Under the pieces are notes generated by a model. That model worked only from the letters and a program-made list of their open reading frames with translations, was not told the DNA's origin and did not search any database. The position numbers and the translations under genes are program-made. This document shows positions 1 through 9,956 of a stretch of DNA of 64,000 nt, piece after piece. The stretch's first letter is position 1, and the number at the start of each line of letters is the position of its first letter. This DNA is from Ostreococcus lucimarinus (lineage: Eukaryota): assembly GCA_000092065.1 (NCBI GenBank), contig CP000585.1, one strand, 5' to 3'.

Positions 1-3000
1 AGCCCAAGCTCGACACTAAACCGACGAGGTATCGATCGCTTATGGTGGCGTATAAAACCCCGTAATCTGAAGGCGGTAGCGTCGAGTCAATTCCACAGAA
101 ATCCGGCGCAGCGGTTGGGAAAGAGGGCGACGTCGGAGTCACTTCCCACAAATTCGCCGTCGGCGTCGATCCTAGCGTCATGTTTAAGCCGATGTACGCC
201 GACGTGTTGAAATCCAAGATCTCGACCATGGTCTCAGGTGTGAGATGAAAGCCGCGCGGTATCACGTTTGCGAACTGGATACTCCCTTGACCGTTGGTGA
301 TGACGCCGGCGAGCGCGGCGCAATGCGCGTTGGTGAGCGTCGCCACCAAGTCTTGCGAAACCGTCTTCGCCTTCAGCGGGCCGAGTCTAGTGAACTCCGT
401 CGTGATAGTCATCTTGGCCGTGCACGTGGATGCTGCTGCTGCTGTGTTGAGCGACTGTGCGAGAGCTAGTTTCGAACTTTGCGGCAAAATCCAAGCGCTT
501 TGAGAATACTTTGGAAACCGCACGCAGTCGGAGTCAATGCTGCGAAAGGAAAGACCTCTGAGAAGTTCTGACTTCATTGCCTCTTGCGAGATCGAAGACA
601 TCCCGTAACCGGTCGCGAACCCAGAGTATATCCTGTGACGCTCCGTCTTTTCATCCGCGTAGAAGTCTAATTGCACCTGCATCGTCGCAGCTTCTATTCT
701 GTTGCTCGTCAACGCCGGATTGAATGTGCTAAAGATGAAAATCGGCCCGGTGAGCAACAGCATGATGATGGCGATGATGCCGCCGCCGAGTAGAATCTTA
801 AGGGGCCAAGGCACAGGTTTTGCTCCGCTGTAATACTGGCGTCTGTTCCGTCTCCACGAGATGAGCATGTCCGTTTTGTGCAACAGGTAGTAAAGCGTCT
901 CGTACCGGAACCACATGACGTAATCTATGCTCGTGTCGCACACGACCCAGTCCAAAAGAGTTCGTATTTCGAACAAGAATGGCAACGTGTTGATGAGGTT
1001 GTACACGAATCGTCCTACAGGGGTATTCCCGAAACGCATGAGGACGATTTTGAACTGATACCCCTCCCTAAAACCTTCTCGAAGTTGCAACGCGCTGACG
1101 ATGAATTGGAAGAGCATCAAAACCGTAAACGCCTTGAGATGCGAGTTATGTCGCGGAGACACGAATGAACGCGTGTCCAGTAACGGAAGGAAAATGAAAA
1201 CCAGTGAGACGTATAGCACGACTTGTGCAAAGTGCAAGTAGAACTTCAACTTGATGTTCTGCGAAAGATACACCAAGCGCATCACAATTATCCACATCAC
1301 AGACGACACGATGGAAATCGTCAGTCCCGTTCCAAAGGACTCCGTCGAACTCAGCGCCGTGCCAGACTCGAAGACTAAGTTACGGTAACCCGTGACAAAC
1401 CAACAAGTAATGATTAATTGTAAGAAAATCTCCAAGGAGTAAAGGTCGACGCCCGGTTTGCCGACATTCCTTTTCGGCATTTTGGCGGAATTGCTAAGAC
1501 AAATCTGCGTCACCAATTCTCTGAAACGAGTTTGTGCAACGTGTATACCCCTAGTGAAGAGGCCGAACGTCCTCATATACGCCCTTCTCCGTTCACGTCG
1601 TCTCAAAGCACGAGTGCGTTCCTTACTAGTGCGTCCTTCTAGATGGTGCGTCTCGACTTGCCGTGTTTTTCCTGTCGCGACATCCTCAAGCGGCGGCGAC
1701 GTCAACGCCGCCAAGTCGATGTCGTCCTTGAATTCACCAGCATGGTACGTCTGATAATCTTCTCGAGGAGCTAGCGGGATGGCATCGCGCCTCGTGCATT
1801 GACCCAAACTATGCATGTGTGACATGTGTAAGACGAGCGTGACAATGAGAAATATGTCTGTCCAGACTTCATCGCGAACCAAATTTCGAGCGCGTGGGAC
1901 GGTGAGAAGAGTCGCACTCAACGTGCTAAACTCACTGTCCGCGGCCGGGTCATACAACGTCATCGTCGGACAATACGGTTGCGCACTGATGTACCACTTG
2001 TTGCGGTTGTCAAACTTTGCGTTCGCATCAAGTTCCATGCAGAACGCCTTGCTTCGGAGCAAAATCCGTGCGTAAAAGCACGCGACGGAATACCAGAAGA
2101 TGAAACGCCACATCTCCGGCAGTGGCTGCGGATTCCACATCGCCGCGAACGCCAAAATGAAGATCACGAGACATGCACTCATCAAATCGACGTGATCGAT
2201 GAAGTTACACACCAAAGCGATGTACAACAAGCGCTCGCTTTGAGAATAGATGATCTTTCCGAAGCCGGTAATGATATTCGCGCCGCCCCAGTCTCCTTTT
2301 CGAGTCCACTCGCTTTCGCCGCCTTTGTCGTTGGGCAACGGATATAGCGCGGGATCGAGCAAGTAAGCGGCAGAATTTCTCGCAGCGTGGACAACCTTGG
2401 CAACGCCATTTATCAACTTGTCTTTGCCCGATAAAACCTCTTCACCTTCCTCGTCGTCTTGCGGCATTGGCATGGTGACGACGTCGGATGGCTCTGACGG
2501 AGGTCCGTAACCAATCGACCTTGAACACGATTGCACGGTGAAGGAGTAGCTCATACCCGGAGTTAGACCAGAGATCACATGTGATGACGGTGCCCGTGAC
2601 TCTGCATCAACGTCCACTTTCACTGGGTTCACGTGATGTGGAAATATCGTTGTCCGCGGCGAACGCTCGCGCTTTATAGTGAATTGTTCGATGTCGTCAG
2701 TCGAGCCGCGCATCTTCCACTTCACCTCGACGGTGGTTGAGTTTTGTGCCCGCACAGTGACATGTTCAGGAACATATTTTTCCGCCGCCGTCTCTTCGTC
2801 GATTGTGTGCCTGAACTTTTGGAAATGAGTCCATTCAGACGCTTGCAAGGCGCTCGCTCGAACTTTGTCGGTGATCATTTTGTACTCTTCATCAATCTCC
2901 TGTTGAATCTTTGCTCGCCATCCAAGAATGTATTTGCGATACAAGATGGAACGGCGAGCACGCTTGTCCATTGCGTTTTTTTCTAATCGCAAGACTTCAC

Positions 3001-6000
3001 GGACGTATCGTTCGTTGGAGAAAAGTTGCGCTTGAACCGAGCAAAGAATGAATAGCGCGACGTCGACGCCTATGGAACCAGAGCTGTAACCCAACACAGA
3101 CACACAGTCTGCAGCGAGCATGGTAGCGTCACACGCCGAGCCGAGTTTACGGACACCGAACAAGGAGTTAATTGTTTCGCACATGCGCGTACCCACAACA
3201 CATGACCCAAGTCGCGCAGTGCGACCATTGAGAAGTATCGGCTTGATATAGGGGATCTGATACACAAGTTTCGCCGCGAGGACGGTGAAGACGTACACGG
3301 GCAAGAGACGGAACAACTCGCCATTCCACCATTTGTGGGCGCGACTCGGGAATATTCGAGTGTTTATTCGCAACTCATTGAAGCGCATCGAAAACAAAAT
3401 CGTGATTCCCGCATAGCACAGTGATATGAAATCACTATCGTGCTGCGCCACGGCAGCCGTCGTAGTGAGAATAACGATGACCAAAAGTAGATACTTGTAG
3501 AAGAACTTCAAGAAGAATTGACCCATGATCTCTTCAATTCTCCGTCGCACAGTCGTTCGTCGCTCGTGAATCGCCATCGAAGCGATTTGGCTGAAAGTGT
3601 AGTGCTCTTGAATGACTTGCAATTCTTCCTTAATTGAAACTTGCCTCGATAGATTTCGATTCGTCCAATTGGCGCGCTTCATTTCTTCCCTTTGAAGGTC
3701 TGCGTCCACGCTCGGAACGTACTCTTGGAGTTGCACGTTTACCGCGTCCCATCGCTTTATTTTGTCATCGTAGGAAAGTTCTGATGTTTCATCGAGCTTG
3801 CGCCGTTCTGCGAGGCGAGTATTGACTTTGTTTGCGAGAGATGTAAACGCCTCTGACTGCACCCACTCGCTACCCATCTTTTGGCCTTTCGCTTTCACGT
3901 AGCCGCGCATCCATGCCGTGCGGACGTCGTCCCGAACCATGTTTTTGTGTCCTTTTCGCACGTAATGTCCCACGAGTAACATCACGAGGATGTCAGATAT
4001 TATTTCGTACTCATGTACAAAAACTGGCCTCGAGTTGCAATCCAAATACGCTGACGGCGCAGGCGCTGCGGCAGCGGAGGACGGACAGTCCCAAATATCG
4101 AGCCAAAACCGTTTTTCAGGGCACGTCTCACAGTAATTTGTATTGAGCCAACTCGGCGGCAGGCGCAAGGCGGCCATGATGTGTATCGCCAAGATGGCGC
4201 CGATGATGAGAAGTATTGCGTAACCTTGAGACTGAAATCTCACAACTCCTGCGCGATTGTTGAAGGCCAAAAAGTATCCAAGGATGATGATATATATAGA
4301 ACTCGTCACATCTGATTTTAAGAAGGCATTGATCAGTAACACGGCCATCGCGAGCAGATACTTCAAGCTCGCGAGCTGCTCAATCGCGGAATCTAGTGTC
4401 TCGAAGGTATTCTTGACATCCCACTTCACGAATCGATAAACCATCCTTATGACGATTGGGCGCCATCCGTACAGTGCGATTTTACTTTTGCTATGCTTCA
4501 AACTCCCGGCATTCACCTGTTTGACGAGATTGGCGAATATATCTTCTTCTGCGCGAATCGGCGTCTGCTGCACCATGGGGGACATGCCTTCATCCGTCGT
4601 GACGATTTTCTTCTTGCCCACTGGCGTTTCGATGTTTTTGTTTTTCATGCGCTCGGCGACGATGAGCAATTTCAACTTCTTTGCCACATCGCATCCCTGA
4701 ACTTCACCGCGAAGCTTTGCCCAATAACTCGCTCGCGGAACTGCGGTCGCCGTCGTCGATTTTGCTTTCCGTTGCACCTTGACATTGTGTCGTCTCTGCA
4801 AGAATCCGTGTAAAACGGCGAAAATGATCACCGCATAATGCGCTCCAAAAATGTACCAGTTTGTCGTAAAAGTCAAGCACGCTTGCGTCGGGAACTGGTT
4901 TGATGATGACGCCGCAACACTAGCATCCTGACAAAATGTCTTGGTGGAATCGAGAACGTAAGGCCACGCACAACAACTCGTGGTGGTTTGCAAGTCATCG
5001 CCGAGACGTGGATCGTAAAGTGAAATCAAGCCAAGCCAACTCCCCCAATTTTCGTTTACTAACGTGTTCAGCGATCCCGATTGGAAGATCGTCAAGAGCG
5101 TGAGCTGTTTGAACACGATGGAAATCGTCGCCAGTAGAGCCAAATAAAATCCGTAGTCATTCACCTCAGTGTGAATTGATACTGGCGCGGCATGATGATA
5201 GTCTGATTCCCTCAGGTGACGCCTGAACCACCCAGACGATCCAGATGGACTGCGCCTTGTCTGAATCGGCGGCGGCGTTATGTCGGCGGCCGTGATAACA
5301 TTGCTTCGTATCCGACGCATTCGGTTCAAGAATCGCCATGAATCCGTCAAAATTCTCATCGACGTTCCAATGACGCTAAAAGTTCCATACCGAAGCGGTA
5401 CGGGAGCCTTGCCGCGGATTGTTGGCACAGCGAGTTCTATGCATGCAAACATTATAACCACGACGTAGAGCATACTCACGACTTCGACTCGAAACGCCAC
5501 ACAGATTGTTGCCACGAGTAAAAGCAGCTCCATGGATACGCCGTGTAACGCGGATTCGAATTCATCACCTACCGAGTCTTTCACGTGCTTTAATACCGTA
5601 GCGGTAGCGTGATACAGAAAGATAGACGGACGCATGGTGTTGATGTCCTCGACCTTCGTCGACTCGGATTCCTTACTCATATCGAGACGACGAATCGGTG
5701 TTCCCTCAGGCAGCCCATCTTCGTACCAGTCACTGTCGTAATCTTCACTATCGCGCTGCAAACGCTCGTTAAGCCAGTAATACAACATCACGCACATGAC
5801 CAGTGTAAGGTAACGCGGCCACATGTACTTCCAAGAAAGGAGCGCCGGCGTCTGCAGTAAACCAAAGTCGAGCGGGGTGAGCTGTCGACTCAAACTACTC
5901 GGCCACGCGTCCATGAGACTACCGGCGACCTCTGGTATGTTATAGACGTACAAAAGCGAGATGTACACGTACTGAAATGCGATATAATACCAAAGCGTAT

Positions 6001-7081
6001 TTCGCAAACGCACCAGCCACTTATCTTGGAACTTCTTGGCGTCAACATCGGCGCCTCTCGTACCACTGAGGTTTCTCGCTGACGCCAGCATTCGCAAAAT
6101 GGTCACCAAAACTGTGACTATGTCCACAACTTGAATCATACTCATGGGCAATCCTCCAACGGTTGCTAAACCAGTGAACGTGATTGCGGCGGCTAAGATT
6201 GGAGCGTAGAGCAAAGGTCGATACCCTCCCACGCGGACTCTGAATCCCATCAGCTCTTGAAACTTGAATGAACTATCTATATCGCCGTGTGACACAGCCA
6301 AGGCGAAGCATGCGTTGGCCAACAGAGCGAAAATGAACCCAACAGTTTGCGCCGGTTTCATGCAACAAAGCCGTCCATTCCTACCCAAGGTCCAAAAGCC
6401 AAAGATGTTTGCGACTTTGGACGTTTCTAATTCCTGCGACGTCGCCCCGAGCGAAGTAAACACATACGACCCGAATATGATCAATCCCGTCAGGAATTGC
6501 ATTTTACCCGTGGTTGAAATTGCGTGCTCAAGTCGCGTCAAACGTGACGTGCGTGGATCACCGCGCCCGCCGACGAAACGCGTGTGCACCGCGACGAAGA
6601 GGAGAAACTGCAACACTCCGTTTGCCGAGTATCCCACGACGCCGCAACAAATGAAACCGAGCAGACGCCACCATTTCTGTATCGTATTCCGCAAATCTTC
6701 CTCTGTCAGCCCGACGACGAACATCAAACCTCGTCGCAAGTACTTCGCAATCGCTGTGGTTCTTCTCGACCCGCCAGCCTCCAAATGAGCCAACTCTCGT
6801 CTCAATTCGCCTCGCGCCCACAGCGACGTCAAAGCCACGAACGCATCCGGAATGAGCGAACGCGTGCCGACCGTCGCTTCATCGAACTTTTGCAACCCGA
6901 ACACTTCCAGCCATTTCGTTGGGACTCGTTCCGCCCCGATCGCGGCGTACGACGTTTGAAAAACGACCTGCACGAACAAAAATCCTCCGGCGACGAACGT
7001 CGTAAACGTCACCGCCTTTGTCGACCGTAACACCGCCCTCGCCACCGGTCGCGTCGACGCGCACAGCGCGAGGTAACACAT
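1..7081 (-). CDS. Piezo-type mechanosensitive ion channel homolog. The C-terminus is truncated by the left window edge. The gene appears intronless and is about 2360 codons long in the window.
   Basis: The minus-strand frame (codon high coordinate = 1 mod 3) is continuously open. It starts at ATG 7081-7079, just after an in-frame TAG at 7102-7100, and runs down to position 2 with no stop. It was hand-translated in full over 2-601 and spot-checked near 982, 2578, 3002-3061, 5821-6000 and 7021-7129. It encodes many hydrophobic helices. The Piezo anchor hallmark PFLFEIRTLLDW = PF(X2)E(X6)W lies at 947-982. It is followed by WVVCDTSIDY...KPVPWPLKILLGGGIIAIIMLLLTGPIFIF (outer-helix-like) and then a cap-like domain that runs off the window. 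The track lists no competing ORF of 60 aa or more here in either the minus phase or the plus phase antisense to it over most of 500-7100. The gene itself is absent from the supplied track. Confidence 0.8.
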   Translation of the reverse strand, partial: MCYLALCASTRPVARAVLRSTKAVTFTTFVAGGFLFVQVVFQTSYAAIGAERVPTKWLEVFGLQKFDEATVGTRSLIPDAFVALTSLWARGELRRELAHLEAGGSRRTTAIAKYLRRGLMFVVGLTEEDLRNTIQKWWRLLGFICCGVVGYSANGVLQFLLFVAVHTRFVGGRGDPRTSRLTRLEHAISTTGKMQFLTGLIIFGSYVFTSLGATSQELETSKVANIFGFWTLGRNGRLCCMKPAQTVGFIFALLANACFALAVSHGDIDSSFKFQELMGFRVRVGGYRPLLYAPILAAAITFTGLATVGGLPMSMIQVVDIVTVLVTILRMLASARNLSGTRGADVDAKKFQDKWLVRLRNTLWYYIAFQYVYISLLYVYNIPEVAGSLMDAWPSSLSRQLTPLDFGLLQTPALLSWKYMWPRYLTLVMCVMLYYWLNERLQRDSEDYDSDWYEDGLPEGTPIRRLDMSKESESTKVEDINTMRPSIFLYHATATVLKHVKDSVGDEFESALHGVSMELLLLVATICVAFRVEVVSMLYVVVIMFACIELAVPTIRGKAPVPLRYGTFSVIGTSMRILTDSWRFLNRMRRIRSNVITAADITPPPIQTRRSPSGSSGWFRRHLRESDYHHAAPVSIHTEVNDYGFYLALLATISIVFKQLTLLTIFQSGSLNTLVNENWGSWLGLISLYDPRLGDDLQTTTSCCAWPYVLDSTKTFCQDASVAASSSNQFPTQACLTFTTNWYIFGAHYAVIIFAVLHGFLQRRHNVKVQRKAKSTTATAVPRASYWAKLRGEVQGCDVAKKLKLLIVAERMKNKNIETPVGKKKIVTTDEGMSPMVQQTPIRAEEDIFANLVKQVNAGSLKHSKSKIALYGWRPIVIRMVYRFVKWDVKNTFETLDSAIEQLASLKYLLAMAVLLINAFLKSDVTSSIYIIILGYFLAFNNRAGVVRFQSQGYAILLIIGAILAIHIMAALRLPPSWLNTNYCETCPEKRFWLDIWDCPSSAAAAPAPSAYLDCNSRPVFVHEYEIISDILVMLLVGHYVRKGHKNMVRDDVRTAWMRGYVKAKGQKMGSEWVQSEAFTSLANKVNTRLAERRKLDETSELSYDDKIKRWDAVNVQLQEYVPSVDADLQREEMKRANWTNRNLSRQVSIKEELQVIQEHYTFSQIASMAIHERRTTVRRRIEEIMGQFFLKFFYKYLLLVIVILTTTAAVAQHDSDFISLCYAGITILFSMRFNELRINTRIFPSRAHKWWNGELFRLLPVYVFTVLAAKLVYQIPYIKPILLNGRTARLGSCVVGTRMCETINSLFGVRKLGSACDATMLAADCVSVLGYSSGSIGVDVALFILCSVQAQLFSNERYVREVLRLEKNAMDKRARRSILYRKYILGWRAKIQQEIDEEYKMITDKVRASALQASEWTHFQKFRHTIDEETAAEKYVPEHVTVRAQNSTTVEVKWKMRGSTDDIEQFTIKRERSPRTTIFPHHVNPVKVDVDAESRAPSSHVISGLTPGMSYSFTVQSCSRSIGYGPPSEPSDVVTMPMPQDDEEGEEVLSGKDKLINGVAKVVHAARNSAAYLLDPALYPLPNDKGGESEWTRKGDWGGANIITGFGKIIYSQSERLLYIALVCNFIDHVDLMSACLVIFILAFAAMWNPQPLPEMWRFIFWYSVACFYARILLRSKAFCMELDANAKFDNRNKWYISAQPYCPTMTLYDPAADSEFSTLSATLLTVPRARNLVRDEVWTDIFLIVTLVLHMSHMHSLGQCTRRDAIPLAPREDYQTYHAGEFKDDIDLAALTSPPLEDVATGKTRQVETHHLEGRTSKERTRALRRRERRRAYMRTFGLFTRGIHVAQTRFRELVTQICLSNSAKMPKRNVGKPGVDLYSLEIFLQLIITCWFVTGYRNLVFESGTALSSTESFGTGLTISIVSSVMWIIVMRLVYLSQNIKLKFYLHFAQVVLYVSLVFIFLPLLDTRSFVSPRHNSHLKAFTVLMLFQFIVSALQLREGFREGYQFKIVLMRFGNTPVGRFVYNLINTLPFLFEIRTLLDWVVCDTSIDYVMWFRYETLYYLLHKTDMLISWRRNRRQYYSGAKPVPWPLKILLGGGIIAIIMLLLTGPIFIFSTFNPALTSNRIEAATMQVQLDFYADEKTERHRIYSGFATGYGMSSISQEAMKSELLRGLSFRSIDSDCVRFPKYSQSAWILPQSSKLALAQSLNTAAAASTCTAKMTITTEFTRLGPLKAKTVSQDLVATLTNAHCAALAGVITNGQGSIQFANVIPRGFHLTPETMVEILDFNTSAYIGLNMTLGSTPTANLWEVTPTSPSFPTAAPDFCGIDSTLPPSDYGVLYATISDRYLVGLVSSLG
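2520..2810 (-). other. Fibronectin type III-like module embedded in the Piezo homolog
   Basis: The translation is ...PEHVTVRAQNSTTVEVKWKMRGSTDDIEQFTIKRERSPRTTIFPHHVNPVKVDVDAESRAPSSHVISGLTPGMSYSFTVQSCSRSIGYGPPSEPSDVV. This is the classic FN3 pattern of W, Y-x-V, LxPGxxYxFxV and a GxGxxS tail. The segment VISGLTPGMSYSFTVQSCS was verified at 2521-2580. Confidence 0.5.
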
Positions 7082-7147
7082 AATGTAACAACACGACACC
7101 TACATCGCGGCATCGCCATTCATCAGTCTTTCACTCTTCGCTCGCGA

Positions 7148-7204
7148 ATTGTTCGCGTTCGCGTTCGCGTTCGCGTTCGCGTTCGCGTTCGCGTTCGCGT
7201 TCAT
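7148..7204. repeat. (GTTCGC)n hexanucleotide microsatellite, about 9 copies
   Basis: Read directly as gttcgcgttcgcgttcgc.... It lies in the putative Piezo 5' flank. Its translation gives the FAFAFAFA artefact ORF 7149..7622. Confidence 0.9.
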
Positions 7205-7578
7205 ACCAAATCACACCGCGCCGTCGACGCCGCGATCAGCGCCGCGCCGTGCACCGCCCTCGACATCGCCATCAGCGCGTCCGCGTCGGACAGCGACACC
7301 GATGCGTCGTCATCGGCTCCATCGTCGTCGGCTCCATCGTCGAAACTCAAACTTTTATTCGTCGTCGTCGCTCGATCCGCGCGCGACGACGACGCGCGCA
7401 TCGACGACGCGACGCGCGCCAACATGGTACTTTCGCGCTCGCCCCGCGCGCCGCGCTCGCGCGCGCGCGTGTGCGGCGCTTTCGAAAGATGACGAGTTAG
7501 TTGGTTGGGTGAAAAAGGAATTTCAAACTCTGGAGCGACAAAACGCGAATACAGTTACAACAACAAAGATGATAAATA

Positions 7579-8748
7579 TTAGCGACTGGACGACGCGCGC
7601 GCGGCGGCGAGCGCGGAGGTGAACCATGAATGGGTGTCGATGCGCACGATGCCGGCGTCGGCGACGTTGGAGGCGTCGAGGGTGACGAAACTGCCCTCGG
7701 CGGCGGCGGCGACTTTGCGAGCGACTTCGTCGGCGGAACCGTGGACGAGACGCGCGCGAGCGGTCGGTGGCGCTGATTTTACGCCCTCGACGCCGTCAGC
7801 GGAGGGAAGTTGGACGATATCGTCGACGATCGCGTCGCGGTAGACGCCGATGACGTGTGGTTGGGGAGAGAAGCCGCTCGGAAAGGAGGCGTCGATGCCT
7901 CCGCCTCGAGAATTGACGTGCGCGATGTGCACGCGCTCGGCGAATTTGACAGACACGTCGCCGCCGCCTGAATCGATACCGATCATTTCTTCACCCGCAC
8001 CCTCTAAACTTCCGATGGAAACGGCGCCACCACTCGTGCGCACGAGACCGAATTCACCCACGCGTAGACTCTTCGCCGTCGCGTCGCCGCCGCCGGTGTT
8101 GACGTTCACTTTATCCCCAAAAACCGCCTCAGCGTGAAACTTCCCTTCTGGTTCGGTGTCTACGTACACCACCGACCCAACAAACTTACCGCGCATCGTC
8201 ACGTCCCCCCCCGCGGTGCGCACTCTGGAATCCGCGCTCACCGATCCTCGCGCGCGCACCGCGCCTCCGCTCGTATCCAGGTCCATCGTCGACCCTTTGA
8301 TCGTCCCCAATTCCACGTCCCCGCCGTTCGTGCGCACTTTCACCCCCGCCTCGACGACCGATTCCACCGAAATCGTCGAATTCTCCCCCCTCAACCGCGC
8401 GTCGACGCCGCAAAATCTCGGCGGTATCCTCGCCCGCACCGCCGCGCGCGTCCCGTCCCTCGCCCCCGTCCTCGCGTCCCGCACCAGCACCACCTCCCCT
8501 CGCCCGCCGTCGCCTCGCGCGCGCGTGATCTCGAACTCGGCGTCGTGCGCGTCGTCCGCGATCTCGATCTCGATGCGCTCCGTCGCCGACGCGTGCGGCG
8601 CGACGACGACGTCCACGCGCGCGCGTTCGCTGTCGAACGCCACCGTCGCGCCCGGCGCGACGCCGTCGAACGTCGTCGTCGCGTGCGTCGCCGCGCGCGC
8701 GAACGGCGCCGACCGCAGCGTCGCGCGCGCGCGCGCGAGTCGACGCAT
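7579..8748 (-). CDS. Hypothetical protein with reiterated G-G-D/GGxV beta-strand repeats (DUF4097 / putative-adhesin-like beta-helix). The N-terminus is Arg/Ala-rich and presequence-like.
   Basis: 389-aa ORF. It has periodic motifs TNGGDVELG, TSGGAVRARG, TAGGDVTMRG, NTGGGDATAK, TSGGAVSIG, DSGGGDVSVK and NSRGGGIDASF. Three long overlapping ORFs (8134..8925 +, 8156..8977 +, 8186..9193 -) are low-complexity R/A/S-rich and are judged GC artefacts. Confidence 0.45.
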   Translation of the reverse strand: MRRLARARATLRSAPFARAATHATTTFDGVAPGATVAFDSERARVDVVVAPHASATERIEIEIADDAHDAEFEITRARGDGGRGEVVLVRDARTGARDGTRAAVRARIPPRFCGVDARLRGENSTISVESVVEAGVKVRTNGGDVELGTIKGSTMDLDTSGGAVRARGSVSADSRVRTAGGDVTMRGKFVGSVVYVDTEPEGKFHAEAVFGDKVNVNTGGGDATAKSLRVGEFGLVRTSGGAVSIGSLEGAGEEMIGIDSGGGDVSVKFAERVHIAHVNSRGGGIDASFPSGFSPQPHVIGVYRDAIVDDIVQLPSADGVEGVKSAPPTARARLVHGSADEVARKVAAAAEGSFVTLDASNVADAGIVRIDTHSWFTSALAAARASSSR

Positions 8749-8834: not shown

Positions 8835-9956
8835 ATGGACGCGAACGCGAACGCGACGCGCGAGAGGGACGCGCCGGACGCCGTCGCGGACGCGGCGTGC
8901 GACGTCGAGCGACGCGCGCACGTGATCAGTGGACGCGTGGCGCAGTTGGATTCAAACATGAAGTCGCTGAAACTTGAACTCTCGGCGCTGAACGATGCGC
9001 TGATGGACATGGAGGGGAAAGCGAAGGAGGGGGACGGGGCGTACGATACGATGGAGACGCGCGCGGCGCTGTACGGCGCGAGACGGGTGATACAAGGCGC
9101 GGGACCGGGTGGAGACTTGTACGGGTACATGAAGCCGAAGACGACGCACTCGCGGTTTCTGCGACTGTTCGTCGGGGGAGCGGTGGAGATCAATTCCGTG
9201 AGACAAGAGGCGAGATTGCGGTTGAAGGAGGAGTATTATCACTTTCGCGATCAAAATACGGTGGTTTACGTGTTGGCGCCGTTGGCGTTGTTGCTCGGAT
9301 ACAGCGAACGCGTGCACCCGAAGGCGCTGGACGCGACGCAGATTGGATACTTGAGGGCGTTTTATCCGATCGCACTGCAGCTGTATTGGGTGTGGCTTTT
9401 GTACTTTTACACCGCACTCGCGCTGCGGGAGAACATTTTGCGCGTGAACGGGTCGACGATTCGTCCGTGGTGGATTAAGCACCACTACTATTCGGCGGCG
9501 ATGGCGCTGTGCGTGTTGACGATGGATTTAGATTCGCCCGCGTGCGAGGCGTTCACTTTGAGATTCTTACTCTTCACCACGCTTCAGGGAGTGGTGATGT
9601 TAGTCCAAAATAGATACCAGCGTTTCCGCTTGTACACGCGCGTGGCGATGGGGAAAGCGTCGCCCATGGACGTGGCGTCGATTGAACTCTCGGGCGGACA
9701 GCTCAAGCTTTTGTACCCACTCCTGTTCGGTTTGCAGGCGATGCAACTGTACGTCGGCGCGAGCGTGCTGTTCGTGGTCATGACGACGTATCGCATAGAA
9801 AGCCACATCATGCGAGAGTGGCAAGCGTCCGTGGCGGGCGTCTTATTCGTTCTCATGGCGGTTGGCAACTTCACCGCCACGCTCAACACGCTGCGATCCA
9901 AGCGCTCATTCGCGCACAAGAAGCGGACTCGCAGCCAAAGTTTTCATCAGGATTAA
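8835..9956 (+). CDS. TMEM120 / TMPIT (TACAN) family membrane protein
   Basis: 373 aa. The N-terminus is coiled-coil-like (LKLELSALNDALMDMEGKAKE) and is followed by multi-pass hydrophobic segments. It carries the conserved WWIKHHYYS motif and FLLFTTLQGVVMLVQNRYQR, as in TMEM120 proteins. Confidence 0.7.
   Translation: MDANANATRERDAPDAVADAACDVERRAHVISGRVAQLDSNMKSLKLELSALNDALMDMEGKAKEGDGAYDTMETRAALYGARRVIQGAGPGGDLYGYMKPKTTHSRFLRLFVGGAVEINSVRQEARLRLKEEYYHFRDQNTVVYVLAPLALLLGYSERVHPKALDATQIGYLRAFYPIALQLYWVWLLYFYTALALRENILRVNGSTIRPWWIKHHYYSAAMALCVLTMDLDSPACEAFTLRFLLFTTLQGVVMLVQNRYQRFRLYTRVAMGKASPMDVASIELSGGQLKLLYPLLFGLQAMQLYVGASVLFVVMTTYRIESHIMREWQASVAGVLFVLMAVGNFTATLNTLRSKRSFAHKKRTRSQSFHQD

Follow-up and report, generated by a model that had tools for sequence, protein, structure and literature searches.

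A fibronectin type III domain in the THU7-THU8 linker of an Ostreococcus Piezo homolog, most likely on the cytosolic face

On which side of the membrane does a fibronectin type III (FN3) domain lie when it is found inside a Piezo channel, and what could it do there? The question is raised by a 64,000-nucleotide stretch of contig CP000585.1 from the green alga Ostreococcus lucimarinus (the whole stretch is called the window below), which begins within a gene for a homolog of the Piezo mechanosensitive channels. An initial annotation noticed an FN3-like module in this homolog and proposed that it is extracellular or lumenal, a lineage-specific ligand- or matrix-binding addition to the blade or cap region. 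The analysis described here confirms that the domain is an FN3 and argues for the opposite side: it lies in the linker between the helical units THU7 and THU8, directly after a long beam-like helix, and most likely faces the cytosol. An FN3 in a membrane protein need not mark an ectodomain, and an easy assumption is thereby corrected.

The FN3 is encoded on the minus strand at window positions 2468..2767 and corresponds to residues 1445-1544 of the open reading frame (ORF; EHVTVRAQ...SDVVTMP). When the segment 2480-2830 (minus strand) is translated alone, it reaches 44.7 bits (E=1.6e-11) for the Pfam family PF00041 (fn3), whose cut-off is 25; within the whole 2366-residue frame, the match covers residues 1444-1540 with 38.1 bits. 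An AlphaFold2 (AF2) model of the isolated domain, based on a nine-sequence alignment, has a mean pLDDT of 83.8, a pTM of 0.77 and seven strands (9-15, 21-26, 34-44, 57-60, 69-73, 81-90 and 94-98). The top PDB matches of this model in Foldseek are all FN3 domains, at a probability of 1.00 and target-normalised TM-scores of up to 0.81, and they include titin Fn3-56, PTPRZ, LAR FN5, Robo3 FN1, irisin, integrin beta4 and myomesin. When the nine homologous FN3 sequences were searched as a profile, the 60 PDB matches shown were likewise all canonical FN3 proteins, including the intracellular FN3s of titin, myomesin and the integrin beta4 tail; no Piezo chain is among these 60.

The core signature of the fold is present as VEVKW (with the strand B Trp), GLTPG (the Leu-x-Pro-Gly before strand F), YSF (strand F) and GYGPPS (before strand G), and these signature residues are invariant across the Ostreococcus, Cymbomonas and oomycete-type proteins. 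The HMM match, the fold and the signature residues all agree, confirming the embedded domain as a genuine FN3 beta-sandwich, just as the initial annotation had suspected. Three of the strings on which that suspicion was based, VEVKW, SGLTPGMSYSFTVQS and GYGPPSEPS, are indeed in the translation; the fourth, Y-x-I, is absent, and strand C reads F-T-I instead, the residue that is usually Tyr being Phe. The range first given for the module, 2520-2810, needs a shift of about 45 nucleotides: it misses the last strand (GYGPPSEPS, at 2486-2512, falls outside it), its top 40 nucleotides or so belong to the preceding helix, and it came without a coding strand.

In its THU9-anchor module and cap, the host protein shows features that define the Piezo family at the level of sequence; the window holds the greater part of its gene, which codes for a mechanosensitive channel of the Piezo type in an Ostreococcus-like green alga. 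The main part of the gene occupies window positions 2..7099 (minus strand, as for all of its parts given below) as a single stop-free frame of 2366 codons, which runs off the start of the window; about 90 C-terminal residues, comprising the inner helix and the C-terminal domain (CTD), fall outside. In Pfam searches with this frame, Piezo_THU9_anchor (PF24874) matches ORF residues 1884-2124 with 120.1 bits (E=1.3e-34; cut-off 28), and Piezo_cap (PF12166) matches with 43 bits (E=5.9e-11; cut-off 26.9). The region of THU9, the anchor and the outer helix (716..1450) is also recognized by phmmer as similar to solved Piezo chains, and it is followed by the extracellular cap (2..715), which the edge of the window truncates. 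As its version of the family motif PF(x2)E(x6)W, the protein has PFLFEIRTLLDW at ORF residues 2040-2051 (947-982), some 500-590 residues downstream of the FN3; the initial annotation had put this distance at about 530 residues. Solved Piezo chains in the PDB are matched by phmmer solely from THU8 onward, through THU9 to the CTD, examples being 9uox (4.8e-15) and mouse Piezo1 5z10 (1.8e-8). P0001, a full-length relative that is 99% identical to the window protein, extends into the inner helix and CTD; residues 1902-2515 of mouse Piezo1 (5z10) align to its residues 1809-2418, so that the alignment continues through mouse residue 2515. The FN3 is therefore located inside a Piezo homolog, as had been claimed.

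The place of the FN3 within the channel emerges from a hydrophobicity scan, in which four-helix groups are visible for THU7, THU8 and THU9. In P0001, the THU7 helices are found at positions 1192, 1221, 1260 and 1340, and are followed by about 265 residues without a hydrophobic segment; the THU8 helices are at 1621, 1636, 1662 and 1742, and those of THU9 at 1883, 1924, 1955 and 1987. The anchor (2035) and the outer helix (2104) come next, and then the cap and the inner helix (2368). In the window, THU7 corresponds to 3020..3517, with a Cys-rich loop between its third and fourth helices. The hydrophilic gap between THU7 and THU8 opens with a strongly basic stretch, modeled as one 80-residue helix that directly precedes the FN3 (residues 71-150 of an AF2 model, at low pLDDT). 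This long helix (2768..3016, ORF residues 1362-1444) follows the fourth THU7 helix and terminates 2-3 residues ahead of the FN3, and is by position the counterpart of the animal beam. On the other side, the FN3 ends about 75 residues upstream of THU8 (1799..2239, ORF residues 1621-1767, four helices). The intervening linker (2240..2467), as seen in the alignment of nine homologs, combines an acidic stretch with a predicted helix and the conserved segment LDPALYP...EW..GDWG, and leads to THU8.

The same order is found in the map of human PIEZO1: THU7 (1117-1304) is followed by the beam (1305-1367), the latch (1412-1425), a latch-to-clasp segment (1426-1514), the clasp (1515-1570), a clasp-to-THU8 segment (1571-1656) and THU8 (1657-1802) (PMC12308237). 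The THU7-THU8 linker of animal Piezos, which contains the beam, plugs, latch and clasp, is intracellular (PMC12308237, PMC8924262). Counting helices leads to the same side. Between the FN3 and the cap there are nine membrane crossings (four in THU8, four in THU9 and the outer helix), and an odd number of this kind places the two domains on opposite membrane faces. A third line of evidence comes from P0106, a protein that groups with oomycete proteins and carries, in addition to its FN3 (46.2 bits), a PH domain that scores 26.2 bits for PF00169 (cut-off 25.1) at residues ~1700-1825, immediately after the FN3 and in the same linker. PH domains are a cytosolic domain type, so this arrangement independently supports the cytosolic side. 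No PH match was found by Pfam in the Ostreococcus or Cymbomonas FN3-Piezos. The FN3 is thus located within the THU7-THU8 linker and, by homology and helix counting, most likely faces the cytosol, on the other side of the membrane from the cap.

These results bear directly on the proposal that the FN3 is an extracellular or lumenal, lineage-specific module that binds a ligand or the matrix from the blade or cap. Textbook FN3 domains are mostly extracellular, and the closest PDB sequence matches do include the receptor ectodomains PTPRD, contactins and pikachurin, but intracellular FN3s (titin, myomesin, integrin beta4 tail) are equally good matches. There is a single Cys in the domain, and its N-S-T sequon is not kept among relatives. 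Nine hydrophobic helices separate the domain from the cap, it lies just after the beam-like helix in a linker that is intracellular in all solved Piezos (PMC12308237), and in P0106 it is directly followed by the PH domain. The architecture is also not lineage-specific, being present in Cymbomonas, Saprolegnia, Aphanomyces and further eukaryotes (see below). We consider an outward-facing FN3 very unlikely, and the initial annotation's assignment of side, role and lineage is not supported, nor is its placement in the blade or cap. Its statement that animal Piezos have no FN3 stands: no solved Piezo chain matched the FN3 in the full-length search or among the 60 profile matches shown, and the human PIEZO1 map lists none (PMC12308237).

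The FN3 has been kept throughout the close relatives of the window protein. PF00041 and the Piezo domains occur together in all nine Ostreococcus-like relatives (52-99% identity), with the FN3 at the same position in each, and the sole length difference there in the alignment amounts to one residue. Mean pairwise identity is 58.9% for the FN3, close to the 57.5% of the whole protein, as compared to 69% for THU9, 43.4% for the post-FN3 linker and 32.1% for the loop between THU8 and THU9. A Nei-Gojobori comparison with the 93%-identical ortholog on contig L001 gives a dN/dS of 0.108 for the FN3, 0.215 for the gene and 0.132 for the THU9-anchor-outer helix region; the FN3 value derives from 4 non-synonymous and 11 synonymous differences, small counts with a consistent direction. 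The FN3 is as constrained as the pore-adjacent core; it belongs to the conserved parts of the Piezo protein and is under selection.

The initial annotation had also mentioned assembly chimerism, and a gene-model artefact that fuses an unrelated FN3 gene to a Piezo gene would be another explanation of this kind. The stop-free frame of 2366 codons passes straight through the FN3, though, and the same gene with the same neighbors is found on independent contigs from three other Ostreococcus-type lineages, making four loci in all with the window. The insertion is kept in all nine relatives, and an FN3 within a Piezo protein is found in Cymbomonas and oomycetes as well. In composition, the FN3 (GC 0.54; GC at third codon positions, GC3, 0.58) resembles its host gene (0.51 and 0.61), arguing that there is no compositional seam, and its dN/dS of about 0.11 also speaks against a fusion. 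The probability of a chimera is practically negligible. The idea that the FN3 is foreign or was inserted recently is rejected too, in view of its gene-like composition, its conservation in all relatives and the same insertion in distant lineages.

The wider distribution of FN3-bearing Piezos was analyzed with an exhaustive profile search using the C-terminal 1166 residues, which found 1219 relatives at E<=1e-3; the taxonomic distribution given here is based on the best 150 of these 1219 hits and on local HMM scans. Clustering at 50% places all Ostreococcus-like proteins under one representative. Two further homolog searches, one with an alignment of the beam, FN3 and THU8 and the other with a THU9-anchor alignment, yielded fragments or generic FN3 proteins only. 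The next best full-length hits beyond Ostreococcus also have an FN3 upstream of THU8, as judged by local HMM and jackhmmer searches. Against the PF00041 cut-off of 25 bits, the FN3 scores 49.7 bits in Cymbomonas tetramitiformis KAK3279946.1 (P0103), 52 bits in one Saprolegnia parasitica protein (P0108) and 59.6 bits in another (P0110, XP_012197598.1), which also has a sub-threshold PH match of 17.7 bits. The score is 25.2 bits in P0114 and 23.1 bits, slightly under the cut-off, in P0116. Local scans detected an FN3 at the equivalent position in proteins from S. diclina and Aphanomyces astaci and in P0124 and P0196, and in P0117 and P0127 the FN3, judged by eye, is split by a long insertion. 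Altogether, an FN3 is detected by HMM in 8 of the 64 non-Ostreococcus representatives that have at least 450 residues upstream of THU8, or in 10 when the two split domains are included. The presence of the same insertion in other prasinophyte Piezos, which the initial annotation had recommended looking for, is borne out by the nine Ostreococcus-like relatives and Cymbomonas. No separate representative attributable to Micromonas or Bathycoccus was found among the best 150 hits or the nine close relatives.

The FN3-bearing Piezos have a sequence feature of their own. A motif R-(E/Q)-x-x-P-x-x-T-(I/L)-(F/L) after strand C, seen in an alignment with Cymbomonas, Saprolegnia and two further members, is common to them and is missing from generic FN3s. 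In the nine Ostreococcus-like sequences it forms part of a segment that is specific to the clade and lies between strands C and E (RSPRTTIFPHxVNPxKVxVDxES); 13 of its positions are invariant (R41, R43, P45, T48, I49, H52, N55, P56, V59, V61, D62, E64 and S65 of the FN3); in the window, this segment reads RSPRTTIFPHHVNPVKVDVDAES (2597..2665). The window protein has all of the characters by which we propose to recognize an FN3-Piezo subfamily, namely an FN3 after a beam-like helix and upstream of THU8 together with the post-strand-C motif. On the evidence of HMM matches and alignments, the FN3 marks a Piezo subfamily of Ostreococcus and Cymbomonas (prasinophyte), Saprolegnia and Aphanomyces (oomycetes) and further eukaryotes. 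In a rough neighbor-joining (NJ) tree of the THU9-anchor region, FN3-bearing proteins fall on one side and FN3-less proteins, which include the Andalucia godoyi PIEZO homolog and an Effrenium protein, fall on the other. The one complication is P0118, in which no FN3 was detected and which nests amid the FN3-bearing proteins. Because of this placement and because the tree has no support values, a single origin of the FN3-bearing Piezos is likely but not established. A separate observation concerns P0126, a JGI/IMG metagenome protein of 2483 residues, which is a Piezo relative without FN3; its source name mentions ankyrin repeats, a hint that other cytosolic modules have been fused to Piezos in other lineages.

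What might an FN3 do at the end of the beam? In PIEZO2, the lateral portals are plugged by the beam-to-latch segment, while the disordered region IDR3 positions the plug and IDR2, which runs from the clasp to THU8, sets velocity sensitivity (PMC8924262). With the inner end of the animal beam lying under the pore module and the post-beam segment regulating the cytosolic exits, an FN3 at this position would be well placed for docking or for binding a partner. The reading that we favor, to which we assign a probability of roughly 60%, is that the FN3 is a rigid cytosolic domain at the pore-proximal end of the beam lever, which either docks in the manner of a clasp or latch or serves as a partner-binding platform. 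It would occupy the spot taken in animals by the central and lateral plug, the latch, the disordered loop and the clasp. From there it could dock on the underside of the blade or of the pore module, or alternatively could tie the channel to cytosolic partners or the cytoskeleton. The chain would then be returned to the inner leaflet at THU8 by the PH domain in P0106, or by the LDPALYP...EW..GDWG segment in Ostreococcus.

A more direct involvement in permeation can also be imagined, with the three FN3s of the trimer sitting under the pore as gate elements that replace the plugs and latch and control the cytosolic ion exit portals, rather than binding partners. The segment after the animal beam consists of just these permeation-controlling plugs and latch (PMC12308237; PMC8924262), the FN3 begins within 2-3 residues of the beam-like helix, and it is as constrained as the pore-adjacent core (see above). 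However, a sandwich of 100 residues far exceeds the animal plugs of 10-34 residues, the FN3 is not placed by any model, and the way in which the algal helix points with respect to the pore is taken from homology only. We think this role for the FN3 unlikely.

The FN3 might instead be a passive spacer that sets the length and geometry of the THU7-THU8 linker and has no specific interface. The animal linker is largely disordered sequence at this place (PMC8924262), and most of the residues that are invariant in the subfamily are ordinary FN3 core positions (the W, L-x-P-G, Y-x-F and G-x-G-P-x-S). Against this, the C-E segment carries a clade-specific motif that is invariant in the nine Ostreococcus-like proteins and recognizable in Cymbomonas and the oomycetes, a pattern that suggests a conserved interface rather than core. 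Purifying selection on the FN3 also exceeds that on the neighboring loops, and we judge the spacer explanation to be rather improbable.

Several points weigh against the docking or platform role that we favor, or against the framework on which it is built. The role itself (docking, clasp or tether) is purely inferred, as the analysis turned up neither a binding partner nor a conserved patch on the surface. The assignment of the FN3 to the cytosolic side depends on homology to animal Piezos and on counted hydrophobic segments. An AF2 model of the 1166-residue C-terminal part is poor (pLDDT 41.9, from a 6-sequence alignment) and does not place the FN3 relative to the pore, beam or blade; what we took from it is confined to the FN3 portion (pLDDT 68-85) and the secondary structure. 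For THU8, the match of the window protein to THU_Piezo1 (PF23188; ORF residues 1619-1767) has 25.7 bits, which is slightly under the cut-off of 27.2; this family is on record in eight of the nine relatives (P0002-P0009). Finally, the position of P0118 and the lack of support values in the NJ tree leave a single origin of the subfamily likely but not proven.

A broader and more tentative suggestion is that the FN3-Piezos are a distinct branch of the family, old enough to be common to green algae and stramenopiles through either a shared ancestor or endosymbiotic or horizontal transfer. In such a branch, a cytosolic FN3 or FN3-PH unit at the inner end of the beam would replace the animal plug, latch and clasp, acting as a gate element or as an attachment point for signals from the cytoskeleton or from inner-leaflet lipids. 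We regard this as possible, if doubtful. If true, the branch would represent a different solution to the problem of coupling the lever to the pore.

The N-terminal part of the blade (3518..7099) is encoded in the same continuous frame as the FN3, and position 7099 is the start of exon 2. Upstream lies a probable intron of 107 nucleotides (7100..7206), bounded by GT..AG and containing a (GAACGC)9 microsatellite, with its exon junction supported by comparison to the relative P0003. The probable exon 1 (7207..7425; MLARVASS...STARCDL) was recognized from its translation and from the N-terminus of P0003: when the end of exon 1 (...AASTARCDL) is joined to the start of exon 2 (VSCCY), the product matches ...AASVARCDLVSACY at the P0003 N-terminus. 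The presence of an upstream exon and an intron implies that prokaryote-style or metagenomic gene calls, such as that of P0001, begin downstream of the true start.

The Piezo gene also differs from its surroundings in base composition. It has a GC content of about 51% (GC3 0.61), as compared to 58-66% in the flanks and about 60% in the rest of the window, and the neighboring genes have a GC3 of 0.72-0.78. All four of the Ostreococcus-type loci that were compared (the window, L001, L002 and L003) share this drop. Its occurrence at the orthologous gene in three other genomes shows that the gene has kept it as a lasting trait, and that it is not the mark of a recent insertion. One possibility is that it reflects weak codon bias in a long, lowly expressed gene.

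The neighborhood of the gene contains a homolog of TMEM120A/B (TACAN), which matches PF07851 with 217 bits (window 8835-9953, plus strand) and lies two genes upstream of Piezo in divergent orientation. Between the two is a DUF4097 'toastrack' protein (34.5 bits; window 7582-8748, minus strand) whose N-terminus is very rich in Arg and Ala; around this gene, both strands have several long ORFs that overlap, a by-product of high GC. The order ClpB, GT4, TMEM120, DUF4097, Piezo, VEFS-box is kept in three related loci, and the portion from TMEM120 to the VEFS-box gene is also found on the Ostreococcus-type contigs L001, L002 and L003, of which L001 was examined with a shorter flank that starts at TMEM120. 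Mammalian TMEM120A has been reported as a modulator, and specifically an inhibitor, of PIEZO2. A functional linkage between TMEM120 and Piezo was considered and set aside: the gene order is kept only within Ostreococcus-like genomes, which share a longer gene-order block here, and the adjacency may be no more than synteny at the level of the genus.

How do these proteins compare with those already on record? One of the nine close relatives is the O. tauri protein CEF98156.1 (XP_022839111.1, A0A090M1T7), which carries the name 'Fibronectin, type III' and is an ortholog of the window protein with 60% identity; the window protein, which is 99% identical to the metagenomic P0001, belongs to an Ostreococcus lineage other than that of the O. 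tauri entry. Cymbomonas KAK3279946.1, Saprolegnia XP_012201597.1 and XP_012197598.1, and Aphanomyces RHY83709.1 have the same architecture and post-strand-C motif. In UniProt, the automatic name of the named relatives is 'Fibronectin type-III domain-containing protein'. The FN3 is thus already flagged by automatic NCBI and UniProt annotation in O. tauri, Cymbomonas, Saprolegnia and Aphanomyces, and the raw observation can be recovered there. No discussion of a Piezo FN3 was found in the full-text literature searched, and the domain goes unmentioned in three papers that include Ostreococcus or oomycete Piezos (PMC6395819, PMC7796506, PMC4820453). The FN3, often the sole domain named by automatic annotation, provides a clean sequence marker for classing non-animal Piezos. 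As for experiments, the hypothesis is testable, because O. tauri is genetically tractable.

For the FN3 itself, the nearest parallels are the cytosolic protein-docking sandwiches of the integrin beta4 cytoplasmic tail, titin and myomesin, which are among the best sequence and fold matches. They differ in being part of unrelated host proteins, with identities of only 20-30% and no common binding motif shown.

For the host protein, the natural comparison is with the THU7-THU8 linker of animal PIEZO1 and PIEZO2, since nearly all structural and mechanistic knowledge of Piezos comes from these two channels. The window protein resembles them in family and in the place of the linker, which comes after the fourth THU7 helix and the beam and before THU8. 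The animal linker, though mostly disordered in its post-beam cytosolic part, tunes permeation, conductance and velocity sensitivity (PMC12308237, PMC8924262). The difference lies in content: where animals have small peptides as plug and latch, extended disordered sequence and a clasp of 56 residues, the window Piezo has a complete 100-residue FN3. In a full-length phmmer search, the solved animal Piezo chains showed no similarity to ORF residues 1362-1620, and the FN3 with its non-homologous linker is therefore a positional counterpart of the animal plug, latch and clasp and not a member of that set. A folded domain at the very spot where animal channels have these elements amounts to a natural experiment on how the end of the beam communicates with the pore and with cytosolic partners.

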